A DNA stretch of 64,000 nt from an uncultured Dokdonia sp. (GCF_947492815.1 NZ_CANLOB010000014.1:325-64324), one strand, 5' to 3'; positions 46,146 through 64,000 are shown, counted from the first letter of the stretch. Made by a program: numbers and translations. The notes: generated by a model not told the origin, from the sequence alone.

Positions 46146-46161
46146 ACGAAAACGTTTTCGT
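46146..46161. promoter_or_regulatory. Perfect 16-bp LacI-family-type operator upstream of susC
   Basis: ACGAAAACGTTTTCGT; lies at the -33 position of a TATTTTTG -7 element (46175-46182). Confidence 0.65.
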
Positions 46162-46278: not shown

Positions 46279-49200
46279 ATGAAGAAAGTATTACTTAAAA
46301 GTATGCTGCTGTTTGTCGCGGTTCTCTTTGCGGGAATTTCAACTGCCCAGACAGTTTCTGGAACAGTGACAGAGGATAATGGTCCTCTGCCGGGTGCAAA
46401 CGTAATTGTAAAAGGCACCCAAAATGGTGCTACTACCGACTTTGACGGTAACTACACTCTCAATAATGTAGCAAGTGATGCTATACTCGTATTTAGTTAT
46501 GTAGGATATTCTACGCAAGAGATTGCTGTAGGAGGAAGAAGCACTGTAAACGCAACATTATCTTTAGATAACGCGCTTGATGAAGTGGTATTAATTGGAT
46601 ATGGTACAACTACAGTTAAAGATGCTACAGGATCTGTTGCATCAGTTACTTCCGAAGAATTTAACCAAGGGGTTATTCAATCTCCTGAACAATTAATTCA
46701 AGGTAAAACTGCCGGAGTTCAAATTTCAGAAACATCTGGAGAGCCTGGAGCTGCTATTGTAGTAAACATTAGAGGTAACAATTCCATACGTTCTGGAAAC
46801 AACCCTCTATTTGTAGTTGACGGAGTACCATTAACTTCTGGTGCAGCACCTGCTGTAAACGTAGCTGGAATTGGTGGAGGAGCTTCAAGAAACCCACTTA
46901 GTTTCTTAAACCCAAATGATATAGAAAGTATTTCTATTCTTAAAGATGCATCAGCTACAGCGATCTACGGATCTCGTGGAGCAAATGGTGTAATTATCAT
47001 TCAAACAAAAGCTGGTCGTGGAGCTAGTAAAGGTATATGGGACATTAACACATCTGTAAGTGTTGCTAATACTGCAAATGAGTATGACTTATTAGGTAGA
47101 GACGCATTTTTAGAAAATATCGCAGAAGTAGGTAACGATCCTGTTGCACTTGACTTCGGATCTGATTCTGACTTCCAAGATTTTTATACACGTACTGCAT
47201 ACTCTAGAAGAACAGATTTAAGTTACTCTAAAAGTTATCAAGGAGGAAACTTAAGAGCTTCTTTCGGATATGCAAACACATTTGGTGTTGTTGAAAATAC
47301 AGATCAAGAGCGTATTGCTGGTCGTTTAAACATAACTCACAAATTTCTTGATGATAAATTGACATTAAGTGGTCAATTTAGTATCGCTAGAGTAAATGAT
47401 CAATTTGCTCCTGTATCTGGAGGTGCTGGTTCTACTGGAGATTTAATTGGAGCATCTATTACTCAGAATCCAACAGCTCCTATTGATCCTGACTTTACAC
47501 CAGGAGGTAACGTATTAAACCCTGTAAGTCTTTTAGAGAACTTCTTAGGAAGATCTAGATCTAATAGATTTTTAGGAAACTTATCTGCTACATATGCCAT
47601 AACTGAAGAACTTGACGCAAAAGTAACTGTAGGTTATGATGAAAATAATACAACGACTACTTCTGCATTCGGATCTGATGTTATTGGATTAAACGGTGTA
47701 TCTGGTATAGGTCGTGGTAACTTCAATACTTTTGATCAGGAAAATTCATTATTAGAAGCAACATTATCTTATAACAAAGAATTTTCAAATTCAAACTTAA
47801 GTGTTGTTGGAGGTTATTCTTATCAAGAATTTGCTCGTTCAGGATTCTTTGCTCAAGGAGCTGGTTTTAATTCTTCTAACTTAGATGGAACTTTAGGTCA
47901 ATTAGAGAATCAATTTGGTTTAATCCAAGGAGTAACTCCTGGAGGTATTCAAACTTTCGGATATGGTGCTGACGGAACATTCTTAAGTACATTTAATCCT
48001 AACGATACTGAAAATCCATTTACAACTGGACAAACACTTCCTAGCGTAAATCGTTTATTCTCTGCATATACAGGTGGAAATTTTGACAATACAGATGAAC
48101 TTCAGTCTTTCTTTGTAAGAGCAAACTATACGATTGCTGACAAATATTTATTTACTGGAACATTTAGAGCGGATGGTTCTACTACGTTTGGTGAAAATGA
48201 GCGTTATGGATATTTCCCTTCAGGAGCATTTGCATGGCAATTACACGAAGAAGATTTCATTGGAGATGCTTTTTCAACTCTTAAATTACGTTTAGGGGCA
48301 GGTATTGTTGGTAACCAAGAAGGTTTATCTTTTGCAAACTTTATTCAAGTAGAAAGACTTGCAGGAGCAGGTATTGCTAATGACTTTACTATTATAGGTA
48401 ATGGTAACAGTATTCCTGGTACATTCTTCCAAGGAGATCCAAACCCAGATTTAAAGTGGGAGGAAACTACTGACTTTAATGTTGGAGTAGATTTCGGATT
48501 TAATAACGATCGTTTCAATGGTACTGTTAACGTATACCGTAAAGAAACAAGAGATTTACTTTTATCAAGACCTCCTGCTGCACCAGCAACGCAACCAGTT
48601 ATTTTTGGTAACTTAGATGATGGTCTTGTATTAAACCAAGGAGTTGAAGTAGCTTTAAATTATGATTTCTTCGATACAGATGATTTCGGTTTTTCTGCTA
48701 GTTTCAATGTAGCGTTTAACAAGAACGAAGTTCAAGATACAGACTTAGTAATAGACTTAGGTCCTATTAACGGTAACGGTTTAACAGGTGCTTTTGCTCA
48801 GCGTTTACAGGCTGGAGAGCCATTAGGTTCTTTCTTCCTTGCTGAATTTACAGGATTTGACGGAGACGGAAACCCAACATATAGAGATGTAAACGGTGAT
48901 GGTGTAGGTGATCCAGATTCAGATAAAACGTTTGTAGGAGAATCTGCTATTCCTGAAATAACTTCAGGTTTATCATTAAATGCTCGTTACAAGAGATTTG
49001 ACTTATCAACATATTTTAATGGACAATTTGGATTCTCTGTATATAATGCTACTGATAACGCATTCTTTACAAGAGCTGGATTATTAATTGGTAAAAACGT
49101 AACACAAGCAGCTACCAACCCTGCAGAAAACCCTGCAGCAACAGTAGCAGTATCATCTAGATTCTTAGAGGCTGGAGATTTTGTACGTTTACAATCAGCA

Positions 49201-49428
49201 TCTTTAGGATACAATTGGCCAGTGAGCGAAGATGGAATCTTTGATTCATTAAGAATATCTCTTACAGGACAAAACTTATTTATTATTACTGATTATAGTG
49301 GATTAGATCCTGAAATCTCTGTAAACACAGGTACTATTAATGCTTCAGCTATCCCAGGTTCTGGTATAGATTATGCAGCATTCCCAAGACAAAGAACATT
49401 TACTCTAGGTGTAAATGCTAGATTTTAA
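46279..49428 (+). CDS. susC: SusC/RagA TonB-dependent transporter
   Basis: N-terminal extension, LDEVVLIG TonB box, plug (NPNDIESISILKDASATAIYGSRGANGVIII), barrel ending FPRQRTFTLGVNARF. Confidence 0.97.
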   Translation: MKKVLLKSMLLFVAVLFAGISTAQTVSGTVTEDNGPLPGANVIVKGTQNGATTDFDGNYTLNNVASDAILVFSYVGYSTQEIAVGGRSTVNATLSLDNALDEVVLIGYGTTTVKDATGSVASVTSEEFNQGVIQSPEQLIQGKTAGVQISETSGEPGAAIVVNIRGNNSIRSGNNPLFVVDGVPLTSGAAPAVNVAGIGGGASRNPLSFLNPNDIESISILKDASATAIYGSRGANGVIIIQTKAGRGASKGIWDINTSVSVANTANEYDLLGRDAFLENIAEVGNDPVALDFGSDSDFQDFYTRTAYSRRTDLSYSKSYQGGNLRASFGYANTFGVVENTDQERIAGRLNITHKFLDDKLTLSGQFSIARVNDQFAPVSGGAGSTGDLIGASITQNPTAPIDPDFTPGGNVLNPVSLLENFLGRSRSNRFLGNLSATYAITEELDAKVTVGYDENNTTTTSAFGSDVIGLNGVSGIGRGNFNTFDQENSLLEATLSYNKEFSNSNLSVVGGYSYQEFARSGFFAQGAGFNSSNLDGTLGQLENQFGLIQGVTPGGIQTFGYGADGTFLSTFNPNDTENPFTTGQTLPSVNRLFSAYTGGNFDNTDELQSFFVRANYTIADKYLFTGTFRADGSTTFGENERYGYFPSGAFAWQLHEEDFIGDAFSTLKLRLGAGIVGNQEGLSFANFIQVERLAGAGIANDFTIIGNGNSIPGTFFQGDPNPDLKWEETTDFNVGVDFGFNNDRFNGTVNVYRKETRDLLLSRPPAAPATQPVIFGNLDDGLVLNQGVEVALNYDFFDTDDFGFSASFNVAFNKNEVQDTDLVIDLGPINGNGLTGAFAQRLQAGEPLGSFFLAEFTGFDGDGNPTYRDVNGDGVGDPDSDKTFVGESAIPEITSGLSLNARYKRFDLSTYFNGQFGFSVYNATDNAFFTRAGLLIGKNVTQAATNPAENPAATVAVSSRFLEAGDFVRLQSASLGYNWPVSEDGIFDSLRISLTGQNLFIITDYSGLDPEISVNTGTINASAIPGSGIDYAAFPRQRTFTLGVNARF

Positions 49429-49445
49429 CAAATAAAAAAAGAAGT

Positions 49446-51065
49446 ATGAAACGAAACAAAATCTTTAAAAATCTGCCTAAGGTACTCTTAGGAGTTTTTG
49501 CCCTAGTATCAGTCATTTCTTGTACTGATCTAGAGGTAGAAGGTGTAGACGGACTTATTATTGACCCTAATGATTCTAGATTCCAAGGGGTAACAGACCC
49601 AGCATCATTTATTGGAAACTCTTACAATAGTTTAAATGGACTTATTGGAGATCAAGCAAATACGTTTGCACTAAGTGAAGTTACTACAGATGCACATCTT
49701 ATCCCTACTCGTGGAGCAGACTGGGGAGATAATGGTATCTGGAGACAATTGCACCAACACAATTGGACACCTGAGCATTCATTTATTACTAATGTATGGA
49801 ATCAGTGGAACACACTACATTTCCAAGGAGCACAATTATTATCTCCTTTAACAACCTTAACTGGTGAGCAAGCAGGAGATGCACATTTCCTAAGAGCTTT
49901 AGGAATGTGGGTTATTTTAGATAACTTCGGGCAAGTACCAGTAAGAGATCCAGAATTAGACATCTTTGTTGATCCTATCGTATTAAGAGGACAAGAAGCT
50001 GTTGATCAGATTGTATCTGATCTTGATGCTGCAATAGCTAACTTATCTGCTGGTGGTCCAGGATCTGGAAACAGTAGAGCAAATAAAGCTGCTGCTCGTT
50101 ACTTATTAGCAAAAGTTTTATTAAACAAGCATATTTACCTTGGAACATCGCCTGATAGTGCAGACATGAACCGAGTGGTTTCTTTAGTAAACGATATTGA
50201 GGGTGAAGGATACGGACTTGTATCTGGATACTTTGATATTTTCAGAGAGCAATTAGACAACGAAACAATTTGGTTTATCCCAACTGGAGTAGGAAACAGA
50301 ATTTGGAACGGATTACATTACAACATGGCACCAGAAATTGCTGGAGGTGGTTGGAATGGATTCTCTACACTTGCTGAATACTATGATTTATTTGAAGGAG
50401 ATCCTAACACGAATGTACCAGGAAGTGGTCAAGAAGAGCGTCGTGGATTTGTACCTACAGCAGGTGTACCTTTTACAGGTGATGCTGGAACTACAGAGTC
50501 TGGAAACTTCCCAGGTTTTGAAGCTGGATCAAACATAGGATTTGGATTCTTAATTGGTCAACAATATGAAATTGATGGATCACCTCTTTCTGAAAGAGGA
50601 GGAGCACCATTAGCTTTCGAAAGAGACTTCGTAGATGGAAATGGAGCTTCTAGCTTAATTAACAACAGTGAAGTTACAGGTATTCGTATGTTAAAGTACA
50701 ACCCACGTTATGGAGGGTTTACTGGACATGAGATATTCTTTAGATTTTCTGATGCTCACTTAATGAGAGCTGAAGCAATGTTACGTAGTGGTGGAGACGC
50801 TACTTCAGAAGTAAATGAGTTACGTATTCTTAGAGGAGCTGCACCGTTAGGAGCAGTAACTGAACAAGATTTATTAGACGAAAGAGGACGTGAATTATAC
50901 GCTGAATTTTGGAGAAGAAATGATTTAGTTCGTTTTGGTCAATTTACTAGAGATTGGGAACTTAAGAGCCCAGATGCTGTAGGTGACACGAACTTAAATT
51001 TATTCCCAATTCCAGCAAGTCAAGTTATTCTTAACCCTAATTTGACACAAAATCCAGGTTACTAA
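49446..51065 (+). CDS. susD: SusD/RagB lipoprotein
   Basis: Lipobox VISC; RFSDAHLMRAEA, ERGRELYAEFWRRNDLVRFG, QNPGY. Confidence 0.95.
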   Translation: MKRNKIFKNLPKVLLGVFALVSVISCTDLEVEGVDGLIIDPNDSRFQGVTDPASFIGNSYNSLNGLIGDQANTFALSEVTTDAHLIPTRGADWGDNGIWRQLHQHNWTPEHSFITNVWNQWNTLHFQGAQLLSPLTTLTGEQAGDAHFLRALGMWVILDNFGQVPVRDPELDIFVDPIVLRGQEAVDQIVSDLDAAIANLSAGGPGSGNSRANKAAARYLLAKVLLNKHIYLGTSPDSADMNRVVSLVNDIEGEGYGLVSGYFDIFREQLDNETIWFIPTGVGNRIWNGLHYNMAPEIAGGGWNGFSTLAEYYDLFEGDPNTNVPGSGQEERRGFVPTAGVPFTGDAGTTESGNFPGFEAGSNIGFGFLIGQQYEIDGSPLSERGGAPLAFERDFVDGNGASSLINNSEVTGIRMLKYNPRYGGFTGHEIFFRFSDAHLMRAEAMLRSGGDATSEVNELRILRGAAPLGAVTEQDLLDERGRELYAEFWRRNDLVRFGQFTRDWELKSPDAVGDTNLNLFPIPASQVILNPNLTQNPGY

Positions 51066-51087
51066 ACCTAAATTTTGAATTAAGCTT

Positions 51088-51117
51088 AAAAAGAGGGTTG
51101 TTTCAACCCTCTTTTTT
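51088..51117 (+). terminator. Rho-independent terminator after susD
   Basis: AAAAAGAGGGTTG-TTT-CAACCCTCTTTTTT perfect stem. Confidence 0.85.
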
Positions 51118-51157
51118 ATTTCTATTTCTTTTAGTAAAATTGTATTTTAGAATTGTA

Positions 51158-54100
51158 TTGAAACCCCTATTTTTAATATTTGCCACTGTAGTACTCTTTG
51201 CTTCATGTAAAGAAAAAACAACACTTCAACCTAAGTTTATTGGAGTGAAAAATTCTGGTATTTCTTTTTCAAATACTGTACAAAACCAACCTGAACTTAA
51301 TATCTTAAACTACCTCTATTTTTATAATGGAGCAGGTACCGCTATTGCTGATTTCAATAATGATGGTTTAGATGATATTTATTTCACTTCAAATCAACAA
51401 GCCGATCAATTATATATCAATAAAGACAATTTACAGTTTGAAAATAGCACGACTTCTTCAGGTATTAAAAATGATCAAGGATGGACAACAGGAGTTACGA
51501 CAGTAGATATTAATAATGATGGACGTACAGACATCTATATATCCAAAGTAGATGGACATCTAAACTTAAAAGGAGCAAATCTTTTGTATGTAAATCAAGG
51601 AAATGACACTAATGGAAATCCTACATTTAAAGAACAAGCAGCCGATTATAATTTAGCCTTAAAAGGTCTTGCAACACAAGCAACTTTTTTTGATTATGAT
51701 GCAGATGGAGATTTGGATGTATTTATCTTAAATCATTCTTTACACCCTAATAGTAATTACGGAAAAGGAACACTACGTACTAAAAAGGATTCTCTATACG
51801 GCGATAAATTACTAGAAAATCAAGATGGTCAATTTATTGATGTTACAGATACCTCTGGCATCTTTCAAAGCAGATTAGGGTATGGATTAGGTATTTCTAT
51901 AGCAGATGTAAATAATGATGGCTATCCAGATATATACCTAGGTAATGATTTCTTTGAAAATGACTACCTCTACATCAATCAAAAAAACAAAACTTTTGTA
52001 GAAGTAAACTCTACACAATCAACATTGGGTCATAGTTCTCATTTTTCTATGGGAAATACGATCAGCGACATCAATAATGATGGACATCCAGATATTATGT
52101 CACTAGACATGTTACCAGAAGATTTACACACATTAAAAGTCTCTGGGGCAGAATATAACTATCCTATATTTCAGAATCAGCTTCGTAATGGATATGAACC
52201 TCAGTTTATGCAAAACACATTGCATCTTAACTTAGGCAATGGCAAATATGCAGAAACAGCTTTTCTAAGTGGCGTCTCTGCTACAGAATGGTCTTGGTCA
52301 CCACTTATTGCAGATTTTGACAATGACGGTCATAAGGATATATACATTACAAACGGTATACAAGGCGCAACAAATGATATGGATTTTGTCAATTTCATCT
52401 CAAATGAAAGTATCCAACAAAAACTAGGTCAAGGTATGAGTGCTGAAGAACTTAAATTCATTGACGAATTACCCGAAAAGAAAACAACAAATTACTTTTA
52501 TAAAAACACTGGAAATGCACAATTTGAAGATGTAAGTAACCAATGGCAAGTAGCACAAAACTCCTTTAGCAATGGCGCTAGTTATGCAGATCTTGACAAT
52601 GACGGAGATCTAGACCTTGTTGTCAATAACGTCAATCAAAATGCATTCATTCTAGAAAATACAACACGTAAAGACAGTAGTACTACCAACTATTTAAAGA
52701 TACATTTCAAAGGAAGTACTACAAATACTCAAGGCATAGGTGCTAAAGTGATTCTATATAAAGGAAAACAAAAACAGTTTTTTGAAAACCACACTACAGA
52801 AGGTTATCTCTCTGCTACCCCTCCTAGCCTACTCGTTGGTTTAGGAAGTCATACACTTGTGGATTCTTTAGAAATAATCTGGTCTGACCAAAAACGTCAA
52901 ACACTTACAAACATTAAAGCAAATCAACGTATTGTAGTCGCTTATGAAAACTCACAAGAAAACACATATACATACCCTGAACATTCGCAAACTTCTTTGA
53001 TTACAAATACATCTTCTCCAATAGATTTTAAACACCGTGATGCCACTTCTATAGAATTTACCCGTACACCTTTAATTCCATATGCAAGTACCAATTCAGG
53101 TCCTTATATAACAACAGGAGATCTTAATAATGACCAAATAGAAGATATCATTACATTAGGTGCCAAAGGGCAGTCATCACAAATTTGGTTACAAAACGAA
53201 TCAGGTGCTTTTCAATCACAAGAATTGCCTGACGCAAAAGACACACAAATACACGAAGATACACATGCTGTCATTTTTGATGCCAATGGTGATCAAATCA
53301 ATGACCTACTTATTGTAAGCGGTGGCAATGAATTTAAACGTGGAAAACCACTAACACCTCGATTATATATTACATCACAAAATATACTTACGAGAGATCA
53401 AGAGCAATTTAAAGAGACTTTTATCAACGCCTCTAAAGTAACTGCAATAGATATTGATAATGATGGAGATATGGATATTGCCATCACAGCAAATGTAGTC
53501 CCGCATCAATTTGGAAAAACCCCTACACAATATCTATTCAAAAATGACGGAAAAGGACATTTTGAAGATATCACTATGGCCTATGCAAAAGACTTTCAAA
53601 ATATAGGCAATGTATATGATATCACTTGGAAAGACCTTAATAACAATGGATATCCAGATGCGATTGTTGCAGGACATTGGATGCCTATTTCCATCTTTAT
53701 AAATGATGGCTCCTCCCTTACGCTACAACAAACAAAAGGACTAGAAAGCACACATGGGTGGTGGAATAGTATTAAAGTAGCCGATTTTGACAATGACGGA
53801 GATCAGGATATCATCGCTGGTAATTGGGGTCTAAATACGCGTTTACAACCTACGTTAGAAGAACCTGTCACTTTGTATCGCAATGATTTTGATGACAATA
53901 ATCAAATAGACCCTATCGTCACCTATTACTATCAAGGGATAGAAACCACCATTGCTACAAAAGATGAACTCGTAAAACAGCTCCCTCTACTTAACAAAAA
54001 ATACCTTTCTTATAACGCTTTCGCTAAAGCAGATATAGAAAAACTACTTGGTAAAGAGAAGTTACAAGAGTCAGAAACAAAAGAAGCATATGTATTTGCA

Positions 54101-54457: not shown

Positions 54458-54463
54458 TAGCAT

Positions 54464-57400
54464 ATGCAAGTTAAATTCACATACCAAACCGTTATCGGAG
54501 CACTCCTCGCTCTATGCATCATAGGATGTACTTCGACTACCAAAGAAAAAGAAAACGAAAAGCAAGAGACTGCAACAGAAGGAAATCCTTTATTTACACT
54601 TCTATCTAAAGAAGAAACAGGTATTGATTTTGTAAACAACATAAAAAACCAAAAAGATTTTAATATTTTCAAATACCGTAACTTCTATAATGGAGGTGGG
54701 GTTTCTATTGGAGATATTAATAATGATGGACTTCCTGATATTTTTCTCACAGCCAATATGGAGAAAAATAAACTTTACTTAAACAAAGGTGATTTTACTT
54801 TTGAAGATATTTCAGAAAAAGCAGGTATTGAAGGTAACAAAGCATGGTCTACAGGAGTAACTATGGCCGATGTAAATGCAGACGGATTATTAGACATCTA
54901 TGTGAGTAATGCTGGAAATTTAGAGGCAGATAACCATGATAATGATTTATACATTAACAACGGAGATCTGACCTTTACAGAAAAAGCAAAAGAATACAAC
55001 TTAGCGACTTCGGGGTTTTCTACGCATGCCTCCTTTTTTGACTATGATAAAGATGGAGATTTAGATGTATATATCTTAAATAACAGTAATGTTCCTGTAA
55101 GTAGTTTAGGAAACAAAGGACAGCGTGACAAACGTGCTCAAGACTGGGAAAATGTAGATAGCCAGTTTAGAGGGGTTGGTGATCTACTCATGCGTAATGA
55201 CAATGGGGTTTTTACAGACGTAAGCAAAGAAGCTGGTATTTATGGCTCCCTTATTGGATTTGGATTAGGCGTGATGGTTACAGACATTAACCACGATTTA
55301 TATCCAGACATCTACATCTCAAATGACTTCTTTGAGCGTGATTATTTATACATTAACAATCAAGACGGTACTTTTACTGAAGAAATAAAAAAATGGACTT
55401 CTCACCTATCACTCTCTGCGATGGGCGTTGATATTTCAGATATTAATAATGACGGACTGCAAGATATTTTTATTACAGACATGCTTCCTGATGGAGAAGA
55501 ACGTGTGAAATCTGTCATGGAATTTGACGGGTATAATGTGTATAAGAGAAAACAACGTAACGATTTCTACCAGCAGTTTATTCAAAATACCTTACAAGTA
55601 AACAATGGTAATGGCACCTTCTCTGAAGTAGCGTATCATAGTGGTGTAGAAGCCACCGATTGGAGTTGGTCTGGATTGGTCTTTGATATGGATAATGATG
55701 GGTATCGCGATATCTATGTAACTAATGGTATTAATCATGATCTTACAGACTTAGATTTTGTAGACTTTTTTGCTAACGAGATTATTCAAAGTAAAGCCAC
55801 AGGAGAAACTAGAGTATTAGACACTATTATTAATAAAATGCCTGTAAAGCCACTTTCTAATTATGCCTACCAAAATCAAAAAGACATTACTTTTAAAAAC
55901 AAGGCCAAAGATTGGGGACTTGAAATTTTAAGTATGTCTAATGGTGCTGCCTATGGTGACTTAGATAATGACGGAGATCTAGATCTTGTCGTAAATAATG
56001 TAAACATGCCATCGTTTGTTTATAGAAATAATACCGACAAAGAAAGAAATCACAACTATATTAAATTAAAATTTAAAGGCGCCGAGAAAAATCCTTTTGC
56101 AATAGGCACTACCGTACGCTTATATCATGGAGGTCAAACGTATATCCAGGAACTTGTTCCTTCTAGAGGATTCCAATCTTCTATGGAACATACCATGACC
56201 ATAGGATTAGGAGCTTCTCAAAAGATAGATTCGTTACGTGTGATTTGGCCTAATGAAAAAACACAGCGTTTTGAAAATCTTACAGTCAACCAAACGCTTC
56301 AACTGCAAATTACAGAAGCAACTGACACCTATAAAGTACCTGCGTCTACAAAAGCAAAAACACTTTTTAATGAAATTTCAAATACGTCATTAGATACTCA
56401 TAAAGAAAATGAGTACAGTGACTTTGATTACGAAGGTCTCATTGCAAAAAAACTATCTCAAGAAGGTCCATCATTAGCTATCGGAGATATAAATGGTGAT
56501 GGTCATGAAGATGTATTTATAGGCGGAGCTAAAAAACAAGCGGGAACACTTTACCTACATAAAGGAAATGGAAAACTAACCAAAGCACCCACGAATGCTG
56601 CCTTTAAAAAAGATGCTAATTATGAAGATTCGGCAGCAGCATTTTTTGATGCAGATAATGACGGCGATTTAGATTTGATGGTAGGCTCAGGTGGTAATGA
56701 AGTGACTACGAAGACAGATTATAGTCTTCGTTTATATCTAAATGATGGTAAGGGCGCTTTCGCGAAAGCGGAAAACACCATCCCTTCTGCATATCAGAAT
56801 ATGTCTGTGATTGCACCCTATGATTTTGATCAAGATGGCGACATGGATGTATTTGTAGGCTCTCGAAGTGTGATTGCAGTATATGGAATTGATCCGGAAC
56901 ACCTTTTCCTTGAAAATAGAGGAAATGGAGAATTCTCAAATGCAACAGAGCGCATTGCATATCCTCTTAAAAATGCAGGAATGATTACCGATGCACTTTG
57001 GGCAGATATGGATCAGGATGGAAAAGAAGATCTTGTGGTTACTTCAGAATGGGGAACTACCAAAATATTTAAAAATAATGGAAGACGTCTTACCGCTATG
57101 AAAAGCTCTTTAGATGATGTACACGGATGGTGGAATACCTTAGAGGCATCAGATCTTGATAACGATGGAGACCTTGACCTAGTATTAGGAAATGAAGGAA
57201 CCAATATTCATTACAAACCTGAAGAAGGGGCTCCTATGAAAATGTACATTAATGACTTTGATAATAATGGTACCATAGAGCAAATCACCACCTTTCATAA
57301 AGATGGAAAGGATTATCCATTACATCAAAAGAAAGAACTTACGGGACAATTAGTGTCTCTTAAAAAACAGAATATCAAGGCATCTGATTATGCAAAACGG

Positions 57401-57835
57401 TCTATAGATGAGTTATTTCCAAAAGAAGTGATTGATGTATCTATCGTAAAGCAAGTACAAACTGCTGCTTCTGTCATTGCTATCAATGAAGGGAATGGCA
57501 CTTTTAGAATTCAAGAGCTACCTGTACGTGTTCAGCTATCATGTGTGTGCGGAATTGCCTGTACAGATGTAAATAATGATGGGAATTTAGATCTCGTCAT
57601 GGGTGGTAATAATTTTGAATTCAAACCACAATACTCACAATTAGATGCTAGTAGTGGTAATGTACTATTAGGAGATGGTAATCTTGGTTTTGAATGGCAA
57701 GACTATACTACAAGTGGTTTTGAGATACGCGAAGAGGTTAAACACTTAGCAACATTCAAAGATAGTGCTGGAAAGACCTTTTTGATTGCTGCTATTAATA
57801 ATGAAAAACCAAGAGTATACAATGCAGGCAATTAG
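54464..57835 (+). CDS. FG-GAP/VCBS-repeat ASPIC/UnbV lipoprotein 2
   Basis: Lipobox IIGC; YRNFYNGGG, ATDWSWS, PSRGFQSS motifs. Confidence 0.88.
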   Translation: MQVKFTYQTVIGALLALCIIGCTSTTKEKENEKQETATEGNPLFTLLSKEETGIDFVNNIKNQKDFNIFKYRNFYNGGGVSIGDINNDGLPDIFLTANMEKNKLYLNKGDFTFEDISEKAGIEGNKAWSTGVTMADVNADGLLDIYVSNAGNLEADNHDNDLYINNGDLTFTEKAKEYNLATSGFSTHASFFDYDKDGDLDVYILNNSNVPVSSLGNKGQRDKRAQDWENVDSQFRGVGDLLMRNDNGVFTDVSKEAGIYGSLIGFGLGVMVTDINHDLYPDIYISNDFFERDYLYINNQDGTFTEEIKKWTSHLSLSAMGVDISDINNDGLQDIFITDMLPDGEERVKSVMEFDGYNVYKRKQRNDFYQQFIQNTLQVNNGNGTFSEVAYHSGVEATDWSWSGLVFDMDNDGYRDIYVTNGINHDLTDLDFVDFFANEIIQSKATGETRVLDTIINKMPVKPLSNYAYQNQKDITFKNKAKDWGLEILSMSNGAAYGDLDNDGDLDLVVNNVNMPSFVYRNNTDKERNHNYIKLKFKGAEKNPFAIGTTVRLYHGGQTYIQELVPSRGFQSSMEHTMTIGLGASQKIDSLRVIWPNEKTQRFENLTVNQTLQLQITEATDTYKVPASTKAKTLFNEISNTSLDTHKENEYSDFDYEGLIAKKLSQEGPSLAIGDINGDGHEDVFIGGAKKQAGTLYLHKGNGKLTKAPTNAAFKKDANYEDSAAAFFDADNDGDLDLMVGSGGNEVTTKTDYSLRLYLNDGKGAFAKAENTIPSAYQNMSVIAPYDFDQDGDMDVFVGSRSVIAVYGIDPEHLFLENRGNGEFSNATERIAYPLKNAGMITDALWADMDQDGKEDLVVTSEWGTTKIFKNNGRRLTAMKSSLDDVHGWWNTLEASDLDNDGDLDLVLGNEGTNIHYKPEEGAPMKMYINDFDNNGTIEQITTFHKDGKDYPLHQKKELTGQLVSLKKQNIKASDYAKRSIDELFPKEVIDVSIVKQVQTAASVIAINEGNGTFRIQELPVRVQLSCVCGIACTDVNNDGNLDLVMGGNNFEFKPQYSQLDASSGNVLLGDGNLGFEWQDYTTSGFEIREEVKHLATFKDSAGKTFLIAAINNEKPRVYNAGN

Positions 57836-60800
57836 AAATATCATATTTCTTAGTCTACTCTTTATGCTTTTTGGCTGTAAAGAGAAAGATACTTTATTTA
57901 AAAATCCATCAGCAGAAGATACAGGGCTTACGTTTGTAAATACCTTGACAGAAAGTGACGATTTCAATATTATAGATTACCTCTATTTTTACAATGGTGG
58001 CGGACTTGCCATAGGTGATATAAATGGAGACACGCTTCCTGATATTTTTATTTCAGGTAATCAAGTAAAAAACAAACTTTACCTCAACAAAGGGAATCTT
58101 CAGTTTGAAGACATTAGTGATAAAGCAGGGATAACAGGTAATAGCACGTGGAATACAGGTGCGGTAATGGGCGATGTAAATGGCGATGGTTTACTAGACA
58201 TTTATGTATGTGCCGTAGTAGGCATTAATGGTTTTGATGGGTATAACGAATTATACATCAATAATGGAGATGCAACATTTACAGAAAGTGCAGCAAAGTA
58301 CGGTTTAGATCTAGATACTTACAGCTCTAATGCCGCTTTTTTAGATTATGACTTAGATGGCGATTTAGATATTTATATTCTGAATCATGCAGTACATACC
58401 CAAGAATCGTATGGAAAAGCCTCTTTACGCTTTAAGCGAAATTATGAGACGGGAGATCGATTGATGCGTAATGACGGAGGCAAATTTACAGATGTAAGTG
58501 AAGAAGCCGGCATTTTAGGAGGCATCAACAGCTACGGATTAGGAATTGCCATTGCCGATTTTAATCAAGATGGATGGCCAGATATTTATGTAGGGAATGA
58601 TTTTCACGAAGATGATTATTACTATTTAAATACAGGAGAAGGCAGCTTTCGCGAAAGCTTAAAAGACTACTTTGGACACACCTCACGTTTTTCTATGGGA
58701 AATGATGTGGCTGATATTAATGCCGATGGTTGGCCTGATATGATCTCACTAGATATGCTGCCTGAAGATGAAAAAGTATTAAAATCATCTGAAGGGGATG
58801 ATAACATTCAAACGCAGAAATTACGTATTGACCGTTTTGGATATCACTATCAGTTTACACGTAATATGCTATATGTAAATCAAAAAGGATATGATTATCA
58901 AGAAACTGCACTTTTAAGTGGTATTGCTGCTACCGACTGGAGTTGGAGTGCTTTATTTGCCGACTTTGATCAAGATAGTACGCAAGATCTTTTTATCTCA
59001 AACGGGATTCCGAAACGTCCAAATGATCTGGATTATGTTCGTTTTATCTCTAGTAAGCAAATTCAAAATAAAATAAGCAATACCAAACTCATTGATCAGA
59101 AAGCATTAGACTTAATGCCTAAGGGGAATACGCATAATTATATCTTTAAAGGAAAAGGACAGCTCGCATTTGAAGACTTATCTGGCACATGGACTCAAAA
59201 AGACACCTTGGTTTCTGGAGCCACTGCCCTAGCCGATCTAGATAATGATGGTGATTTAGATATCGTCACTAATAATATTAACACGACTCCACAAGTATAT
59301 CAAAATACCACCGATGCTTCGGCAAATTATCTAAAGATTCGTTTTGAGTATAAAAAAGGAAATACTCTGGGAATAGGCACCAAAGTATTTGCCTATCATA
59401 AAGGGCAATTACAGTATAAGGAATTATATACCGTACGGGGTTTCCAAGCATCTTCCGAACCAATACTGCACTTTGGAGTTGGTAATGCACCTAGTATCGA
59501 TTCGCTAAAAGTGATCTGGCCAGATCGTACGTCACAAATACTTACTAATGTGACGACAAATCAAACACTTACTATTTCGCCGAAAGGCAATACACCTTTT
59601 AATTATAATACACTACAACCTAAGAGCCAATCTCTTTTCAAAAAAGTAGTCGATAATTTAGGCATTGATTTTACCCATACAGAAGATCGATACATTGATT
59701 TTAACAGACAAAAACTTATTCCATACCAAGTATCAGATCGTGGTCCAGCAGTCGCTATCGGTGATATCAATGGAGATCAAAGAGATGATATTTATTTTGG
59801 GAGTTCTAAGTTTCAAGAATCCAAAATTTATCTGGCTGATAGCATTGGGTTTACAGCAGCTTCATTTCCTATTATCACCAAAGAGACTGTTACAGAAGAT
59901 GTAGTGGCAACCCTTCAGGATTTTGATCAGGATGGTCGTGCAGATCTTCTTATAGGAACTGGTGGCACCGACTTTGATAATAAGGCAAAACCACTCAAAG
60001 ATCTTTATTACACAGCCAAAGACACGACGTTTGTACAACAACAACTTCCAGAAAGCTTTCAGAACGCTTCTGTACTCGCTGTACACGATTATGATAATGA
60101 TGGTGATCTAGATGTATTTGTAGGTAACCAGGCTGTTACAAATGATTTTGGGCGCCCATCTGAATCGCTATTACTTCGCAATGATAAAGGTACTTTCAGT
60201 ATAGACGATACGACCTCTTTTAATGATATAGGAATGTTAACAGATGCTGTTTGGAGTGATTTTAATGCCGACGGAACAAAAGACCTTATCCTTATTGGAG
60301 AATGGATGGCACCTCAGTTTTATGCAAACACAAATGGCAGTTTACAAAAAGTACTTGTAACTGATGCATCTATGCATGGGTTATGGCAAGCTATAGAACC
60401 CTTTGATATGGATGCCGATGGCGACATAGATTACATCTTAGGAAATTGGGGAGAAAACAGTAAGTTTTCTGCTTCTCCAGAAGCACCTATGTATGCTTAT
60501 TTAGATGACTTTGATTCCAATGGTCAATCAGAAACGATTATTGCCACTCAAAAAAATGGAGCCTATTACCCATTATTAGGATTAAATGAATTAGGTAGTC
60601 AGATGACCAACCTCTTTAAAAAGTACACAAGTTATAAGGATTTTGGAGGGCAGACAGTAGACGCTATTTTTGGTAAGAAAGCTTTATCTCAAAGCACTCA
60701 ATTACGCGTAGAAACCTTACAATCTGGATACTTAAAAAATGAAAATGGACGTTTTAGGTTTGTGCCTTTCGGCGAAAGCTTACAAATAGCGCCTATCATG

Positions 60801-61073
60801 GCATTTGAAACGTATGATTTTGATGGAGATGGACAAAAAGAAGTACTTGCTGCTGGAAATTATTTTGGTGTAAAACCTTTTCATGGTCGGCTTGATTCTT
60901 TCTCTGGAGCATTGCTTAAAAGTGATGGAAGTAGTACCTTAGGTCATCATCTAGGCTTAGACCTTGCTCAGAAATCAGTAAGACATCTTTCTATTTTATC
61001 TGTAGATACAAAAACATACCTTTTGGTTACTTTTAATAATGAAAAAGCACACGTATATCAATTACAAAAATAA
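57822..61073 (+). CDS. FG-GAP/VCBS-repeat ASPIC/UnbV lipoprotein 3
   Basis: Lipobox LFGC; YLYFYNGGG, ATDWSWS, RGFQAS motifs; start moved to ATG at 57822. Confidence 0.88.
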   Translation: MQAIRNIIFLSLLFMLFGCKEKDTLFKNPSAEDTGLTFVNTLTESDDFNIIDYLYFYNGGGLAIGDINGDTLPDIFISGNQVKNKLYLNKGNLQFEDISDKAGITGNSTWNTGAVMGDVNGDGLLDIYVCAVVGINGFDGYNELYINNGDATFTESAAKYGLDLDTYSSNAAFLDYDLDGDLDIYILNHAVHTQESYGKASLRFKRNYETGDRLMRNDGGKFTDVSEEAGILGGINSYGLGIAIADFNQDGWPDIYVGNDFHEDDYYYLNTGEGSFRESLKDYFGHTSRFSMGNDVADINADGWPDMISLDMLPEDEKVLKSSEGDDNIQTQKLRIDRFGYHYQFTRNMLYVNQKGYDYQETALLSGIAATDWSWSALFADFDQDSTQDLFISNGIPKRPNDLDYVRFISSKQIQNKISNTKLIDQKALDLMPKGNTHNYIFKGKGQLAFEDLSGTWTQKDTLVSGATALADLDNDGDLDIVTNNINTTPQVYQNTTDASANYLKIRFEYKKGNTLGIGTKVFAYHKGQLQYKELYTVRGFQASSEPILHFGVGNAPSIDSLKVIWPDRTSQILTNVTTNQTLTISPKGNTPFNYNTLQPKSQSLFKKVVDNLGIDFTHTEDRYIDFNRQKLIPYQVSDRGPAVAIGDINGDQRDDIYFGSSKFQESKIYLADSIGFTAASFPIITKETVTEDVVATLQDFDQDGRADLLIGTGGTDFDNKAKPLKDLYYTAKDTTFVQQQLPESFQNASVLAVHDYDNDGDLDVFVGNQAVTNDFGRPSESLLLRNDKGTFSIDDTTSFNDIGMLTDAVWSDFNADGTKDLILIGEWMAPQFYANTNGSLQKVLVTDASMHGLWQAIEPFDMDADGDIDYILGNWGENSKFSASPEAPMYAYLDDFDSNGQSETIIATQKNGAYYPLLGLNELGSQMTNLFKKYTSYKDFGGQTVDAIFGKKALSQSTQLRVETLQSGYLKNENGRFRFVPFGESLQIAPIMAFETYDFDGDGQKEVLAAGNYFGVKPFHGRLDSFSGALLKSDGSSTLGHHLGLDLAQKSVRHLSILSVDTKTYLLVTFNNEKAHVYQLQK

Positions 61074-61080
61074 ACACAAC

Positions 61081-62448
61081 ATGACTAGCATGATATCCCG
61101 TTATTTTGGAGTCCTACTCCTGATTCTTTTCTTTACAGCTTGTGAAGAAAAACCTGCTGAACCTATTGTGATTACCGCCGAAAATTTTCACACCTCTGTA
61201 AACAATGTTACAGAAGTGATGATACATGATATATTTTCACCACCACAAGCCAGTAGAATATATGCGTACCCTAATGTGGCTGCTTATGAAATCTTATCAA
61301 GTAAAGCATCAGACTACAACTCATTGGCTACGCAACTTGCCGGTTTTACAGCAATTCCTGAACCTAATCCTGATTCTACAAAATATGTAAACTATGAACT
61401 TGCTGCTCTTGTGGCGCATATGGATTTAAGCAGACGCTTGGTATTTTCTGAAGACATGATCACACCCTACAGAGATAGTTTATATCAATTATGGAACACT
61501 AAAAACCCTAAAGAATATACAACTTCAAAAACCTATGGTCTCGCTGTAGCAGAACATGTAGCTGCATGGATGGATAAGGACATGTACAAAGAAACACGTA
61601 CCATGCCTAAATTCTCTGTAATTACAGACGATCCTTCTAGATGGCAACCTACGCCACCTGCCTATGCAGATGGTATCGAGCCCCACTGGAATAAAATACG
61701 TCCGTTTGTGATTGACTCTGCAGCACAATTTAAACCTGTGCCTCCTCCTGCTTTTTCTATGGATGAGTCGTCAGATTTTTACAAAGAGCTTAAAGAAGTA
61801 TATGATATTAGCGAACGTATTACAAAACAAGGAGATGACGCAGAAGAAATTGCTATCGCACAATTCTGGGATTGTAATCCATATGTCTCTGTAACGAGAG
61901 GGCACCTTATGTTTGCTACTAAAAAAATCACGCCTGGAGCACACTGGATTGGTATTGCTAAAATTGCTTCTAGAAATGCAGGACACGACATCATGCAAAC
62001 CATGTACACGTACACTAAGACATCTATTGCCATTGCCGATGCTTTTATAAGCTGTTGGGATGAAAAATACCGCAGTAATTTAGTACGTCCAGAAACACTC
62101 ATCAATGAGCATTTTAATGATAGTTGGCAACCTATTTTACAAACACCTCCATTTCCAGAATATGTAAGTGGTCACTCAGTAGTGTCTGGAGCTGCATCTG
62201 AAGCATTAACCAGTATTTTTGGAGATGGCTTTTCATTTATAGATGACACAGAATTGCCTTATGGACTTCCTGTACGTAGTTTTTCTTCTTTTAGAGCTGC
62301 AGCTAGTGAAGCAGCTGTAAGTAGACTCTATGGAGGTATTCATTACCGTGCCGCCGTAGATAACGGACTGGTACAAGGAAAAAATATAGGAAGATTTATT
62401 AATGCTTCTCTAAAAATGAAAATTAATAACGCACAAGCTTCAAATTAA
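61081..62448 (+). CDS. Vanadium-dependent haloperoxidase/PAP2-fold lipoprotein
   Basis: Lipobox FTAC; KYRSNLVRP, PPFPEYVSGHS, SRLYGGIHY vanadate/phosphate-binding motifs. Confidence 0.85.
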   Translation: MTSMISRYFGVLLLILFFTACEEKPAEPIVITAENFHTSVNNVTEVMIHDIFSPPQASRIYAYPNVAAYEILSSKASDYNSLATQLAGFTAIPEPNPDSTKYVNYELAALVAHMDLSRRLVFSEDMITPYRDSLYQLWNTKNPKEYTTSKTYGLAVAEHVAAWMDKDMYKETRTMPKFSVITDDPSRWQPTPPAYADGIEPHWNKIRPFVIDSAAQFKPVPPPAFSMDESSDFYKELKEVYDISERITKQGDDAEEIAIAQFWDCNPYVSVTRGHLMFATKKITPGAHWIGIAKIASRNAGHDIMQTMYTYTKTSIAIADAFISCWDEKYRSNLVRPETLINEHFNDSWQPILQTPPFPEYVSGHSVVSGAASEALTSIFGDGFSFIDDTELPYGLPVRSFSSFRAAASEAAVSRLYGGIHYRAAVDNGLVQGKNIGRFINASLKMKINNAQASN

Positions 62449-62450
62449 TT

Positions 62451-63341
62451 ATGAAAAAGATAGTACGTCTACTACTGTTCGTTGTTCTTATCGTAGCGGC
62501 CTGGTATCTATTTATAAAACCTTATGATTATGTAGTACGTTTTCCTGCAAAAACAACGGTAGGAACGATTAATCAATCTATAAAATCATGGTATGCCGCT
62601 ATAGAAGGTACAGAGATTATTGATGACTCTAAATTTGATGAACTCAAGCAGCAATTTAAATTTGGCGATTCTACACATCTTTACACGTGGAAAATAGAAG
62701 CCTTAACAGACTCGACCTCTCGTGTAAAAGTATATGTAAAAGATCGTGAGCATAGTTTTGCAAATAAGCTTGCGATTCCGTTTTCAAAAACAGCTATAGA
62801 AAAACGTTCGGAAGCAACTGTAAAGGAATTTTATGATGTTCTTAATTCTCACCTCAAAAAAACTAAGGTGACTATTAACGGGGAAGATGCAACAAAGGAA
62901 ACCTATGTTGCTTATACACCCCTTAAAGGCTTACAGGTTGAAAAAGCAAAAGGAATGATGTATAATTATTCTTTATTAACCCAAATCATGCTTAAAGGGA
63001 ATGTTGCGCTTAATGGTCCTCCTTTTGTAGAAGTTACACATTGGGATACCAAAACAGATAGTATCTCGTATAATTTCTGTTTTCCCATCAAAAAAAGCGA
63101 TAGCTTACCTACACATCCTGAAATTAAATACAAACAATATCATAGCCGAAAAGCCCTCAAAGCAACCTATAATGGCAACTATATTACTTCAGATCGTGCT
63201 TGGTATGCGCTACACACTTATGCCAATAGTCACAACATTCCAGTAGATCTCACACCAGTAGAAGTATTTTATAACAATCCAAATATGGGCGGTGATGAGC
63301 TTAAGTGGAAGGCAGAGATCTTTATGCCTATCAAAGAGTAA
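62451..63341 (+). CDS. Membrane-anchored protein with C-terminal GyrI-like small-molecule-binding domain
   Basis: N-terminal TM helix; KATYNGNY...AWYAL and PVEVFYNNP GyrI-like pattern. Confidence 0.75.
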   Translation: MKKIVRLLLFVVLIVAAWYLFIKPYDYVVRFPAKTTVGTINQSIKSWYAAIEGTEIIDDSKFDELKQQFKFGDSTHLYTWKIEALTDSTSRVKVYVKDREHSFANKLAIPFSKTAIEKRSEATVKEFYDVLNSHLKKTKVTINGEDATKETYVAYTPLKGLQVEKAKGMMYNYSLLTQIMLKGNVALNGPPFVEVTHWDTKTDSISYNFCFPIKKSDSLPTHPEIKYKQYHSRKALKATYNGNYITSDRAWYALHTYANSHNIPVDLTPVEVFYNNPNMGGDELKWKAEIFMPIKE

Positions 63342-63346
63342 AACAT

Positions 63347-63916
63347 ATGTCCAAGCTATTCCTAGATCAAAACTACCAAGGCATTGATTATACTAGCCAA
63401 GGGTTTTCTATAGGAGAGTATGACAATTGTACATTTACAAACTGCTTATTTCCAGAGCTACATATTTCTAATACCACCTTCTTAGAATGCACATTTATAG
63501 ATTGTAATTTTACCAATACCAAGTTTGGAGGAACAACACTTAATGACGTCTTTTTTAAAGGCTGTAAAATGATAGGGATAGATTTAAGTGTATGTAATGA
63601 TTTTATGCTTTCCATAAAAGCCGAAGACTCTGTACTCGATCTGGCAAATTGTTATCAACTCAATCTTTCAAAAACTTCTTTTAAAGAGTGCTCTTTAAAA
63701 GAAGTAGATTTTACAGAAAGCAACCTATCTGAAGTAATATTTGCAAATTGCAACCTTAAAGATGCTATTTTTGATCATACCAATCTTCAAAAAACAGATT
63801 TTAAATCGGCATTAAATTATACCATAGACCTAGACCAGAATACGGTAAAAGGTGCTCAGTTTTCTAAAGAAAATATACAGGGACTACTCACTAAATACGG
63901 TATAAAAATCTCCTAA
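63347..63916 (+). CDS. Pentapeptide-repeat protein
   Basis: Serial [AC][DNST]F/L five-residue repeats (NCTFT, ECTFI, DCNFT, GCKMI, NCNLK); start moved to ATG at 63347. Confidence 0.92.
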   Translation: MSKLFLDQNYQGIDYTSQGFSIGEYDNCTFTNCLFPELHISNTTFLECTFIDCNFTNTKFGGTTLNDVFFKGCKMIGIDLSVCNDFMLSIKAEDSVLDLANCYQLNLSKTSFKECSLKEVDFTESNLSEVIFANCNLKDAIFDHTNLQKTDFKSALNYTIDLDQNTVKGAQFSKENIQGLLTKYGIKIS

Positions 63917-64000
63917 TATGCTTTTATACGCTTTCGCGAAAGCGTATACCTGATACACACATCATAAAACACTTGTGAAAACAAATGGTTTAAATTTAGT

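Follow-up and report, generated by a model that had tools for sequence, protein, structure and literature searches.

Positions 46279-63916 of a 64,000-nucleotide stretch of DNA from an uncultured Dokdonia sp. (GCF_947492815.1, NZ_CANLOB010000014.1:325-64324; this whole stretch is called the window below) carry a SusCD importer pair, three large lipoproteins of the FG-GAP/UnbV-ASPIC family (ASP1, ASP2 and ASP3), a vanadium-dependent iodoperoxidase of the VIPO1 type (VIPO), a GyrI-like protein and a pentapeptide-repeat protein. We explain this region as two linked units, the SusCD importer and a propeller-iodoperoxidase operon, the second of which would handle iodide and peroxide at the cell surface; this integrated model is the reading to which we lean, with a confidence that stays somewhat short of even. 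Gene identities come from an open reading frame listing together with Pfam and NCBIfam scans, which assigned all eight genes and recovered every gene named in a first-pass annotation made from the sequence alone.

All eight genes lie on the plus strand. The SusC-type TonB-dependent transporter (46279-49428, 1049 aa), with CarboxypepD_reg, Plug and barrel domains, scores 665 bits on TIGR04056 (cut-off 368), and 17 nt separate it from the SusD-family lipoprotein (49446-51065, 539 aa, PF07980 and PF14322, lipobox VISC), making the two an adjacent pair of SusC/RagA-type transporter and SusD lipoprotein. At 51088-51116 (plus strand), beginning 23 nt after the susD stop, stands an intrinsic-terminator-like hairpin of 13 pairs (AAAAAGAGGGTTGTTTCAACCCTCTTTTT, then a T run), the top match of the terminator scan and the strong terminator that the first-pass annotation had placed there. 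ASP1 (51158-54457, 1099 aa), a CRTAC1-like double-propeller lipoprotein, starts at TTG 51158, 3' of this terminator, which gives MKPLFLIFATVVLFASC with lipobox LFASC; the listed TTG at 51098 was rejected because that codon falls within the hairpin. It is followed by ASP2 (54464-57835, 1123 aa), by ASP3 (57822-61073, 1083 aa, lipobox MLFGC), whose start we corrected to ATG 57822, and by the lipoprotein VIPO (61081-62448, open frame from 61039), which probably starts at ATG 61081 (MTSMISRYFGVLLLILFFTAC). The GyrI-like protein (62451-63341, 296 aa) and the pentapeptide-repeat protein (63347-63916, 189 aa; PF13599, PF00805 and PF13576; no signal peptide) complete the series, the latter with its start corrected to ATG 63347, at which its length matches that in other Dokdonia. 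With these starts, the junctions from ASP1 to the pentapeptide gene measure +6, -14, +7, +2 and +5 nt, so the tightly packed six-gene run described in the first-pass annotation is real, with gaps of 2-7 bp and one 14-bp overlap. Lipoboxes were found in SusD, ASP1, ASP2, ASP3 and VIPO.

Compared with all PDB sequences, VIPO (469 aa) matches 4CIT/4USZ at about 72% identity over its full length (E 4e-213), residues 20-462 aligning to 10-451 of 4CIT. All the vanadate-binding residues (K343, R350, S377, G378, H379, R429 and H435) and the second-shell residues (Y282, C339, W340 and F372) are present, the same set as in Zg-VIPO1 (ZGAL_1262), and the K-x6-RP, SGH and SR-x5-H motifs are kept in all 65 orthologs that we collected. 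The VIPO copies at the Zobellia locus are 86% identical to 4CIT. PMC5064120 names 4USZ_A as the Zobellia galactanivorans iodoperoxidase of Fournier et al. 2014, and the title of that work, as cited there, describes Zg-VIPO1 as iodide-specific. The Dokdonia VIPO is thus an ortholog of Zg-VIPO1 with an intact vanadate site, which turns the haloperoxidase call of the first-pass annotation into a link with a characterised enzyme. For the Dokdonia protein, its orthology would predict iodide-specific, H2O2-dependent halide oxidation. VIPO1-like genes occur in 56 of the 301 Bacteroidota genomes sampled, and none of the 83 VIPO-like matches in those 56 genomes (open frames of 436-582 aa) is fused to a propeller.

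We compared the gene order by tblastn of the window proteins against 11 same-genus regions and 80 named loci. Dokdonia pacifica is the closest species-representative genome (93% identity for the protein compared), and all Dokdonia loci share the order susC-susD-ASP1-ASP2-ASP3-VIPO-GyrI-pentapeptide. Of the 80 loci, about 75 contain the core of two or three ASP genes followed by VIPO and the GyrI-like gene; their genera include Aureisphaera, Flagellimonas, Croceitalea, Croceivirga, Zobellia, Eudoraea, Robiginitalea, Maribacter, Saonia, Leptobacterium and Spongiivirga. In nearly all of the 80, ASP3 stands immediately upstream of VIPO, and the SusC orthologs in related loci are 45-77% identical. 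The pentapeptide gene is confined to the Dokdonia-type loci; in 51 loci of other genera a 287-aa lipoprotein takes its place after the GyrI-like gene (for example L061:11420-12290, the position of ZGAL_1264). This lipoprotein gives only weak propeller-type Pfam matches (Vgb_lyase, SdiA-regulated), and a homolog 36% identical to it is encoded elsewhere in the Dokdonia genome (C4:170429-171292), unlinked to the locus. In a survey of one genome per genus across 151 Flavobacteriaceae genera, the GyrI-like gene is present in 40, with VIPO as its immediate neighbour in 36 of 39. A SusD ortholog was found in 32 of these genomes: in 27 it shares the contig with VIPO and lies 6.7-13 kb upstream of it, in two it lies 19-21 kb upstream, in one it is unlinked and in two it is on a separate contig. 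One further, fragmented genome has a weak SusD match only, and in seven surveyed genomes no SusD ortholog was detected at the threshold used. The arrangement SusCD-ASP-ASP(-ASP)-vanadium haloperoxidase (VHPO) recurs in other Bacteroidota families (L118, L120, L121 and L125).

The closest known system to the Dokdonia region is ZGAL_1248-1264 of Zobellia, where three ASPIC/FG-GAP genes likewise lie upstream of VIPO and a membrane GyrI-like gene downstream, with SusCD, LacI, pgmB and GH65 (GH, glycoside hydrolase family) nearby as in Dokdonia. The two differ in that Zobellia has five genes inserted between susD and ASP1, which in Dokdonia abut with only the terminator between them; in that LacI, pgmB and GH65 are divergent from susC in Zobellia but downstream of the locus in Dokdonia; and in the 287-aa lipoprotein found where Dokdonia has its pentapeptide protein. 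Six Flagellimonas-type loci (L066, L085, L091, L095, L097 and L100) carry in their first 3.4 kb an SSS transporter upstream of two propeller genes, together with a sulfite-oxidase-family molybdoenzyme with a Tat signal (407 aa) and a membrane-anchored CxxCH cytochrome (156 aa), a redox pair that there adjoins the iodoperoxidase operon.

Upstream of susC lies a perfect 16-bp palindrome, ACGAAAACGTTTTCGT (46146-46161, no strand assigned), 118-133 bp before the susC ATG and unique in the window, in which 0.01 chance matches are expected. Aligning the susC upstream regions revealed the perfect palindrome CACGAAAACGTTTTCGTA 110-134 bp before the susC ATG, present in every Dokdonia locus and in Zobellia, Eudoraea, Flagellimonas, Croceitalea, Robiginitalea, Spongiivirga and Leptobacterium; in Aureisphaera it stands farther upstream, next to LacI. 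Eighteen loci from nine genera have it at an unchanged distance from susC, exactly or with one mismatch, and 22 of the 25 matches with at most two mismatches in 1.88 Mb of relatives' loci are the susC site. We read it as a LacI-type operator, to which the LacI-family protein of the neighbourhood would bind. Outside Dokdonia, the gene divergent from susC encodes this LacI-family regulator, followed by a beta-phosphoglucomutase (beta-PGM, pgmB), a GH65 phosphorylase and often a GH13 lipoprotein, with large GH13 enzymes of the type IX secretion system just upstream and, in Spongiivirga, a SusE gene too.

The Dokdonia genome has the regulator, pgmB and GH65 too. Its LacI ortholog (55% identical; C14:76719-77762) is grouped with them farther along this contig, at C14:72949-77762, adjoined by GH32, an MFS sugar porter and a fructokinase, so that GH65, beta-PGM, LacI and GH32 stand 9-14 kb past the locus, outside the window. 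Five other Dokdonia loci have GH65-pgmB-LacI starting 0.1-3.5 kb after the pentapeptide gene; here the two are parted by a 9-kb insertion (C14:64693-72643) that does not occur at this place in those five and that encodes an 882-aa hemopexin-repeat-like protein, a 571-aa esterase-like protein of the type IX secretion system, an RHS-type fragment and a 437-aa transposase or integrase. The first-pass annotation had described a SusCD locus free of carbohydrate-active enzymes (CAZymes). This holds within 46279-63916, where no Pfam glycoside-hydrolase domain was found, but not for the system as a whole: judged from gene content, the CAZyme-free appearance is local, and susCD belongs with GH65, pgmB and LacI, to which relatives add GH13 or SusE. 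The best solved relative of the SusD protein is the starch-binding SusD of Bacteroides thetaiotaomicron (3CK7, E 3e-30; next match 2.5e-19), a further likeness to the flavobacterial alpha-1,4-glucan polysaccharide utilisation loci (PULs) of Kappelmann et al. 2019 (PMC6298971), in which susCD is likewise accompanied by LacI, GH65 and beta-PGM and, as in the relatives studied here, by GH13. That study describes 'reduced' alpha-glucan PULs in Maribacter, without susE/F and with one GH13 and one GH65, and does not mention propeller, haloperoxidase or GyrI-like genes after susD.

Genome-wide, only two other sites match the palindrome with at most one mismatch. One, the only intergenic copy of the two (ACGAAAACGATTTCGT), lies 113 bp upstream of a sugar operon (C16:84084-91327) that specifies two MFS transporters, the first of them SLC45-like, a GH37 trehalase with a calcium-binding N-terminus, a GH100-like protein and a PfkB kinase, an operon that this copy places probably in the same LacI regulon. 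The other (C1:27113-27128) falls inside codons 7-12 of pckA, the phosphoenolpyruvate carboxykinase gene, where it could serve as a roadblock or have arisen by chance, about 0.06 such sites being expected in the genome.

Several observations separate the importer from the genes that follow it. An A/T-run-flanked hairpin after susD occurs in all 12 Dokdonia loci and also in Aureisphaera, Robiginitalea, Spongiivirga, Croceitalea, Flagellimonas beolgyonensis and strain GF1; from locus to locus the stem changes in sequence and keeps its structure. A similar hairpin follows susD in the second SusCD-ASPIC locus of the same genome, described below. The susD/ASP1 junction also tolerates insertions, namely a GH2 gene, a DnaE2/Pol IV pair and an SSS transporter in Zobellia, xylose genes and an SSS transporter in Eudoraea, and an SSS transporter in Flagellimonas. 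In Saonia, 800 kb separate the ASP-VIPO-GyrI block from the orthologous susCD, and the palindrome has stayed with the latter. Upstream of ASP1, several genera share a TAnnTTGCC motif that resembles the Bacteroidetes -7 box.

Expression data point in the same direction. A supplementary table of Thomas et al. 2017 (PMC5613140) gives 21 array values for each Z. galactanivorans gene, including ZGAL_1248 (GH13), ZGAL_1249 (GH65), ZGAL_1250 (beta-PGM), ZGAL_1251 (LacI), ZGAL_1252 (the TonB-dependent receptor, SusC), ZGAL_1253 (SusD), ZGAL_1258 (SSS transporter), ZGAL_1259-1261 (ASPIC/UnbV FG-GAP proteins), ZGAL_1262 (vanadium haloperoxidase) and ZGAL_1263 (membrane protein). GH65, pgmB, SusC and SusD correlate with one another (r = 0.5-0.9), as do ZGAL_1260, 1261, 1262 and 1263 (r = 0.5-0.8), whereas between the two groups r runs from -0.2 to -0.7. 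The SusCD signals stand 5-10 times above those of the ASPIC/VIPO group; on glucose ZGAL_1260-1262 reach or approach their highest values, and the ZGAL_1261 value is significantly reduced on agar. Linked in the genome, the two units are not co-regulated in Zobellia, the sole organism for which we reached expression data. Of the linkage to susCD and the co-regulation with it on which the first-pass annotation made its reading depend, the linkage survives (27 of the 32 genus-representative genomes with a SusD ortholog) and the co-regulation, in Zobellia, does not.

As the first-pass annotation had described them, the three propellers are paralogous lipoproteins some 1,100 aa long; they share 38-39% pairwise identity, and each has 9-10 FG-GAP_3 stretches (10 in ASP1) and one UnbV_ASPIC domain. 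All three belong to the CRTAC1/ASPIC-UnbV family, with 224-280 bits on PF13517 and 67, 80 and 78 bits for ASP1, ASP2 and ASP3 on PF07593 (cut-off 23.4). They form three orthologous groups whose order is preserved across genera, the ASP1 orthologs (48-85% identity) holding the first position and ASP2 being the most conserved paralogue (62-95%). An AlphaFold2 model of ASP2, built from a 146-sequence alignment of the three groups (predicted local distance difference test, pLDDT, 88; predicted template modelling score, pTM, 0.89), consists of an N-terminal propeller with a beta-sandwich domain and then a second propeller. Its only specific Foldseek match is murine CRTAC1 (cartilage acidic protein 1; 9ETN, E 2e-25, template modelling score, TM, 0.71), onto whose FG-GAP propeller and UnbV/ASPIC domain the N-terminal half of ASP2 superposes; the other matches are multi-propeller scaffolds such as DDB1 and SF3B3. 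The bacterial proteins differ from CRTAC1 in being lipoproteins with a second, C-terminal propeller, the sequence similarity is confined to about 130 residues, and CRTAC1 carries no biochemical function that could be transferred to them. The invariant residues of the 146-sequence alignment lie mainly in Asp/Asn/Gly loops, no fewer than 12, of the FG-GAP kind that binds calcium, with further aromatic and polar positions (W400-S-W402, E291, Y294, Y296, K349, Q371 and N375) and no Cys or His cluster. Because CRTAC1 is the only specific match, the remaining matches are multi-propeller scaffolds and the invariant residues are of the Asp/Asn/Gly kind, we see the propellers, as modelled, as binding or scaffold proteins and not as recognisable enzymes.

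A fourth long paralogue is encoded in the second SusCD-ASPIC locus of the genome (C21:57929-75259), which contains a GntR/PBP regulator, SusC, SusD, the hairpin and a 1103-aa ASPIC protein, and continues with a GH36-like melibiase, a fusion of glycerol kinase and glycerol-3-phosphate (G3P) dehydrogenase (1060 aa), an SSS transporter and galE, with galK and galT upstream. From this gene content it looks like a locus for the use of alpha-galactosyl-glycerol of the floridoside type.

The GyrI-like protein scores 32.5 bits on PF06445 (cut-off 26) and thus has a GyrI-like domain. Its AlphaFold2 model (pLDDT 91.5) shows a hydrophobic N-terminal helix (residues 2-22), an alpha/beta domain (residues 27-135) and the C-terminal GyrI-like domain, for which Foldseek returned CtaZ, CTR107 and EcmrR (E 5.6e-10 to 1e-6) and, beyond these, the BmrR ligand domain, an albicidin-resistance protein, SbmC and SOUL/HEBP. 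The fold common to these binders covers the C-terminal 155 residues (TM 0.76-0.85, target-normalised); the Dokdonia protein differs from them in its added N-terminal membrane or signal helix and alpha/beta domain and in lacking a DNA-binding domain. On this structural model its ligands would be small planar or hydrophobic molecules, and by the positive-inside rule it probably faces the periplasm. The best NCBIfam matches of the pentapeptide-repeat protein are Qnr models, at 56 bits against a cut-off of 240, a score at which it classes only as a generic pentapeptide-repeat protein. Immediately 3' of its gene, at 63925-63948 of the window, is a repetitive extragenic palindrome (REP)-like perfect palindrome, TATACGCTTTCGCGAAAGCGTATA, whose core ACGCTTTCGCGAAAGCGT recurs upstream of susC in two other Dokdonia species (L019 and L023).

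In the two-unit model that we propose for these observations, the first unit (operator, susC, susD and terminator) would be the outer-membrane importer of a flavobacterial alpha-glucoside/alpha-glucan system. The LacI-family repressor, encoded next to beta-phosphoglucomutase and GH65 13 kb along the contig, would bind the palindrome ACGAAAACGTTTTCGT, and sugar entering through SusCD would be split in the cytoplasm, so that no surface hydrolase would be needed in this genome. The second unit (ASP1-ASP2-ASP3-VIPO-GyrI-like and the Dokdonia pentapeptide protein) is the Dokdonia copy of the ZGAL_1259-1263 cluster, presumably with its own promoter 3' of the susD terminator. Its three CRTAC1-like double propellers may be calcium-loaded binding or scaffold lipoproteins at the cell surface, alongside SusCD and possibly in contact with it and with VIPO. 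The lipoprotein VIPO would oxidise iodide to hypoiodous acid (HOI) at the cell surface with ambient H2O2, which would both remove peroxide and produce reactive iodine, and the periplasm-facing GyrI-like protein would capture a small hydrophobic or iodinated product. The unit would thereby couple peroxide and iodine chemistry to the site of algal sugar uptake. Zobellia accumulates iodine (PMC9296495), and, according to PMC5064120, iodine uptake by Flavobacteriaceae strain C-21 requires glucose, O2 and Ca2+, a requirement bypassed by H2O2, and was attributed by its authors to a haloperoxidase. Surface iodide oxidation fits the Zobellia iodoperoxidase, this accumulation and the C-21 physiology. 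A much bolder extension, which we rate as quite unlikely, would have the ASP-VIPO-GyrI operon underlie the iodine uptake and accumulation, dependent on glucose, calcium and oxygen, of strain C-21 and Zobellia: a surface complex of propellers and iodoperoxidase beside an alpha-glucoside SusCD would physically couple iodide oxidation to sugar scavenging on algal surfaces, with the GyrI-like protein as periplasmic acceptor of the iodinated product. Next to susC, an HI0933-like FAD protein is encoded divergently (window 44690-45916, minus strand). Some HI0933-family enzymes produce H2O2; as a source of peroxide we set this flavoprotein aside, as it adjoins susC in Dokdonia alone and lacks a signal peptide, and it is probably unrelated to the locus.

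A number of results weigh against the two-unit model. The negative correlation in Zobellia means that any functional coupling of the units is not transcriptional there, and the array conditions included neither alpha-glucan nor iodide nor peroxide. The only specific structural match of the propellers, at the level of the model, is CRTAC1, whose own function is unclear, and neither the domain scan nor the alignment nor Foldseek gave them an enzyme-like fold or metal site. The GH13 genes that neighbour susCD in Flagellimonas, Spongiivirga, strain GF1 and Zobellia have no ortholog in this genome by tblastn, a difference from the flavobacterial alpha-1,4-glucan PULs owing to which the imported sugar may be a small alpha-glucoside and not starch. 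The palindrome accompanies susC and not ASP1: no second operator was found upstream of ASP1 in the relatives' loci, except for a site with three mismatches in Saonia. This site (L108:14240-14262, Saonia flava), before the unlinked ASP1, is an imperfect palindrome, AAAAAAACGTTTTCGC, with a perfect right half-site, and hints that the propeller operon may sometimes share the regulon. Finally, one family has an ASP-VHPO pair without SusCD (L122 and L126) and some genomes have a lone VHPO (L119 and L124), so SusCD is not obligatory.

The region could also be a single oxidative PUL, along the lines of the surface complex oxidising or halogenating a substrate before import that the first-pass annotation had suggested; the propellers would hold an organic substrate, HOI made by VIPO would oxidise or iodinate it and SusCD would import the product. 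The tight linkage of SusCD, ASP and VHPO across families would be natural under this reading, as would the lipoboxes of ASP1-3, VIPO and SusD and a GyrI-like fold that binds planar aromatic ligands, possible products of such chemistry. Yet the conserved terminator after susD and the separate promoter-like motif before ASP1 divide what should be one unit, the two gene sets are negatively correlated in Zobellia, susCD is tied by its palindrome and neighbours to ordinary alpha-glucoside enzymes, and the ASP-VHPO pair exists without SusCD; we regard a single oxidative PUL as unlikely. FG-GAP propellers can be lectins, as in the Psathyrella lectin, and ASP1-3 hold the place after susD that is usual for surface glycan-binding proteins. 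They might thus be ordinary glycan- or glycoside-binding proteins, analogues of SusE/F for small alpha-glycosides, with VIPO, the GyrI-like protein and the pentapeptide protein as unrelated stress-defence passengers. The fourth long paralogue, which follows another SusCD pair beside a GH36-like enzyme, the glycerol kinase/G3P dehydrogenase fusion, an SSS transporter and galK/T/E, speaks for a glycan-binding role, as do distant loci with secreted GH65 or (alpha/alpha)6 glycosidases. The adjacency of VIPO to ASP3 (about 75 of 80 loci) and to the GyrI-like gene (36 of 39 genera) is, however, too constant for passengers, the ASP-VHPO pair persists where SusCD is missing, and Spongiivirga has SusE in addition to the ASPs, which are thus not simple SusE replacements. 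This too we hold to be an improbable account.

Two further proposals assign the second unit a narrower role. In one, it would defend the cell against aromatic toxins or signals, which VIPO would halogenate at the surface and the GyrI-like protein sequester, a Qnr-like pentapeptide protein in Dokdonia shielding DNA gyrase. The top fold matches of the GyrI-like protein do bind gyrase poisons or drugs (CtaZ, which binds closthioamide, the albicidin-resistance protein, SbmC and BmrR/EcmrR), Qnr models are the best NCBIfam matches of the pentapeptide protein, and other bacterial VHPOs halogenate alkylquinolone signals (PMC11312541). However, the Qnr score falls far below its cut-off, the pentapeptide gene is limited to Dokdonia, and the N-terminal helix of the GyrI-like protein argues against a location in the cytoplasm, where gyrase is; Zobellia, flavobacteria and Bacteroidota go unmentioned in the quinolone-VHPO paper (PMC11312541), and the title of Fournier 2014, as cited in PMC5064120, describes Zg-VIPO1 as iodide-specific. 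A defence module is, in our view, very unlikely. The other proposal is an iodine-uptake machine of the Amachi type, in which the calcium propellers themselves would, as the proposed 'glucose oxidase', supply VIPO with H2O2 in a sugar-dependent way. The dependence of C-21 uptake on glucose, O2 and Ca2+ and its bypass by added H2O2 (PMC5064120) agree with it, and so do the at least 12 invariant Asp-rich calcium-type loops of the propellers, the sugar-regulon neighbourhood and the near-maximal expression of ZGAL_1260, 1261 and 1262 on glucose. But the propellers show no flavin, copper, pyrroloquinoline quinone (PQQ) or haem signature and no enzyme-like fold match, and their invariant residues are mainly structural Asp, Asn and Gly; we hold propellers acting as an oxidase to be highly improbable.

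The VIPO enzyme, the Sus paradigm and the alpha-glucan regulon were already known, and the ASPIC genes are named in the Zobellia annotation. Our literature search found no published account of the conserved operon, of its attachment to a LacI-controlled SusCD, of its function or of the gene neighbourhood of Zg-VIPO1, and searches on ASPIC/UnbV with SusD, on CRTAC1-family/VCBS proteins with SusC and on CRTAC1 structure returned nothing relevant. What is new here is the conserved susC palindrome, the regulon context with the insertion that masks it, the conserved terminator and the expression of the Zobellia genes in two blocks.

Bacterial iodine cycling is recognised as geochemically important and, to our knowledge, almost no genes have been assigned to it. 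VIPO orthologs share a fixed operon with three propellers of the CRTAC1 type and a ligand binder, beside a predicted repressor-controlled alpha-glucoside importer in dozens of Flavobacteriaceae genera, and the arrangement recurs in other Bacteroidota families. This operon is a concrete candidate system that is genetically tractable, gene-deletion work in Zobellia having been published, and it invites comparison with the old physiological observation that iodine uptake depends on sugar and calcium. 'CAZyme-free PULs' like this one should be reread, since their SusCD part belongs to an ordinary sugar regulon, and for the ASPIC/UnbV family, human CRTAC1 included, the operon would offer a first functional context.

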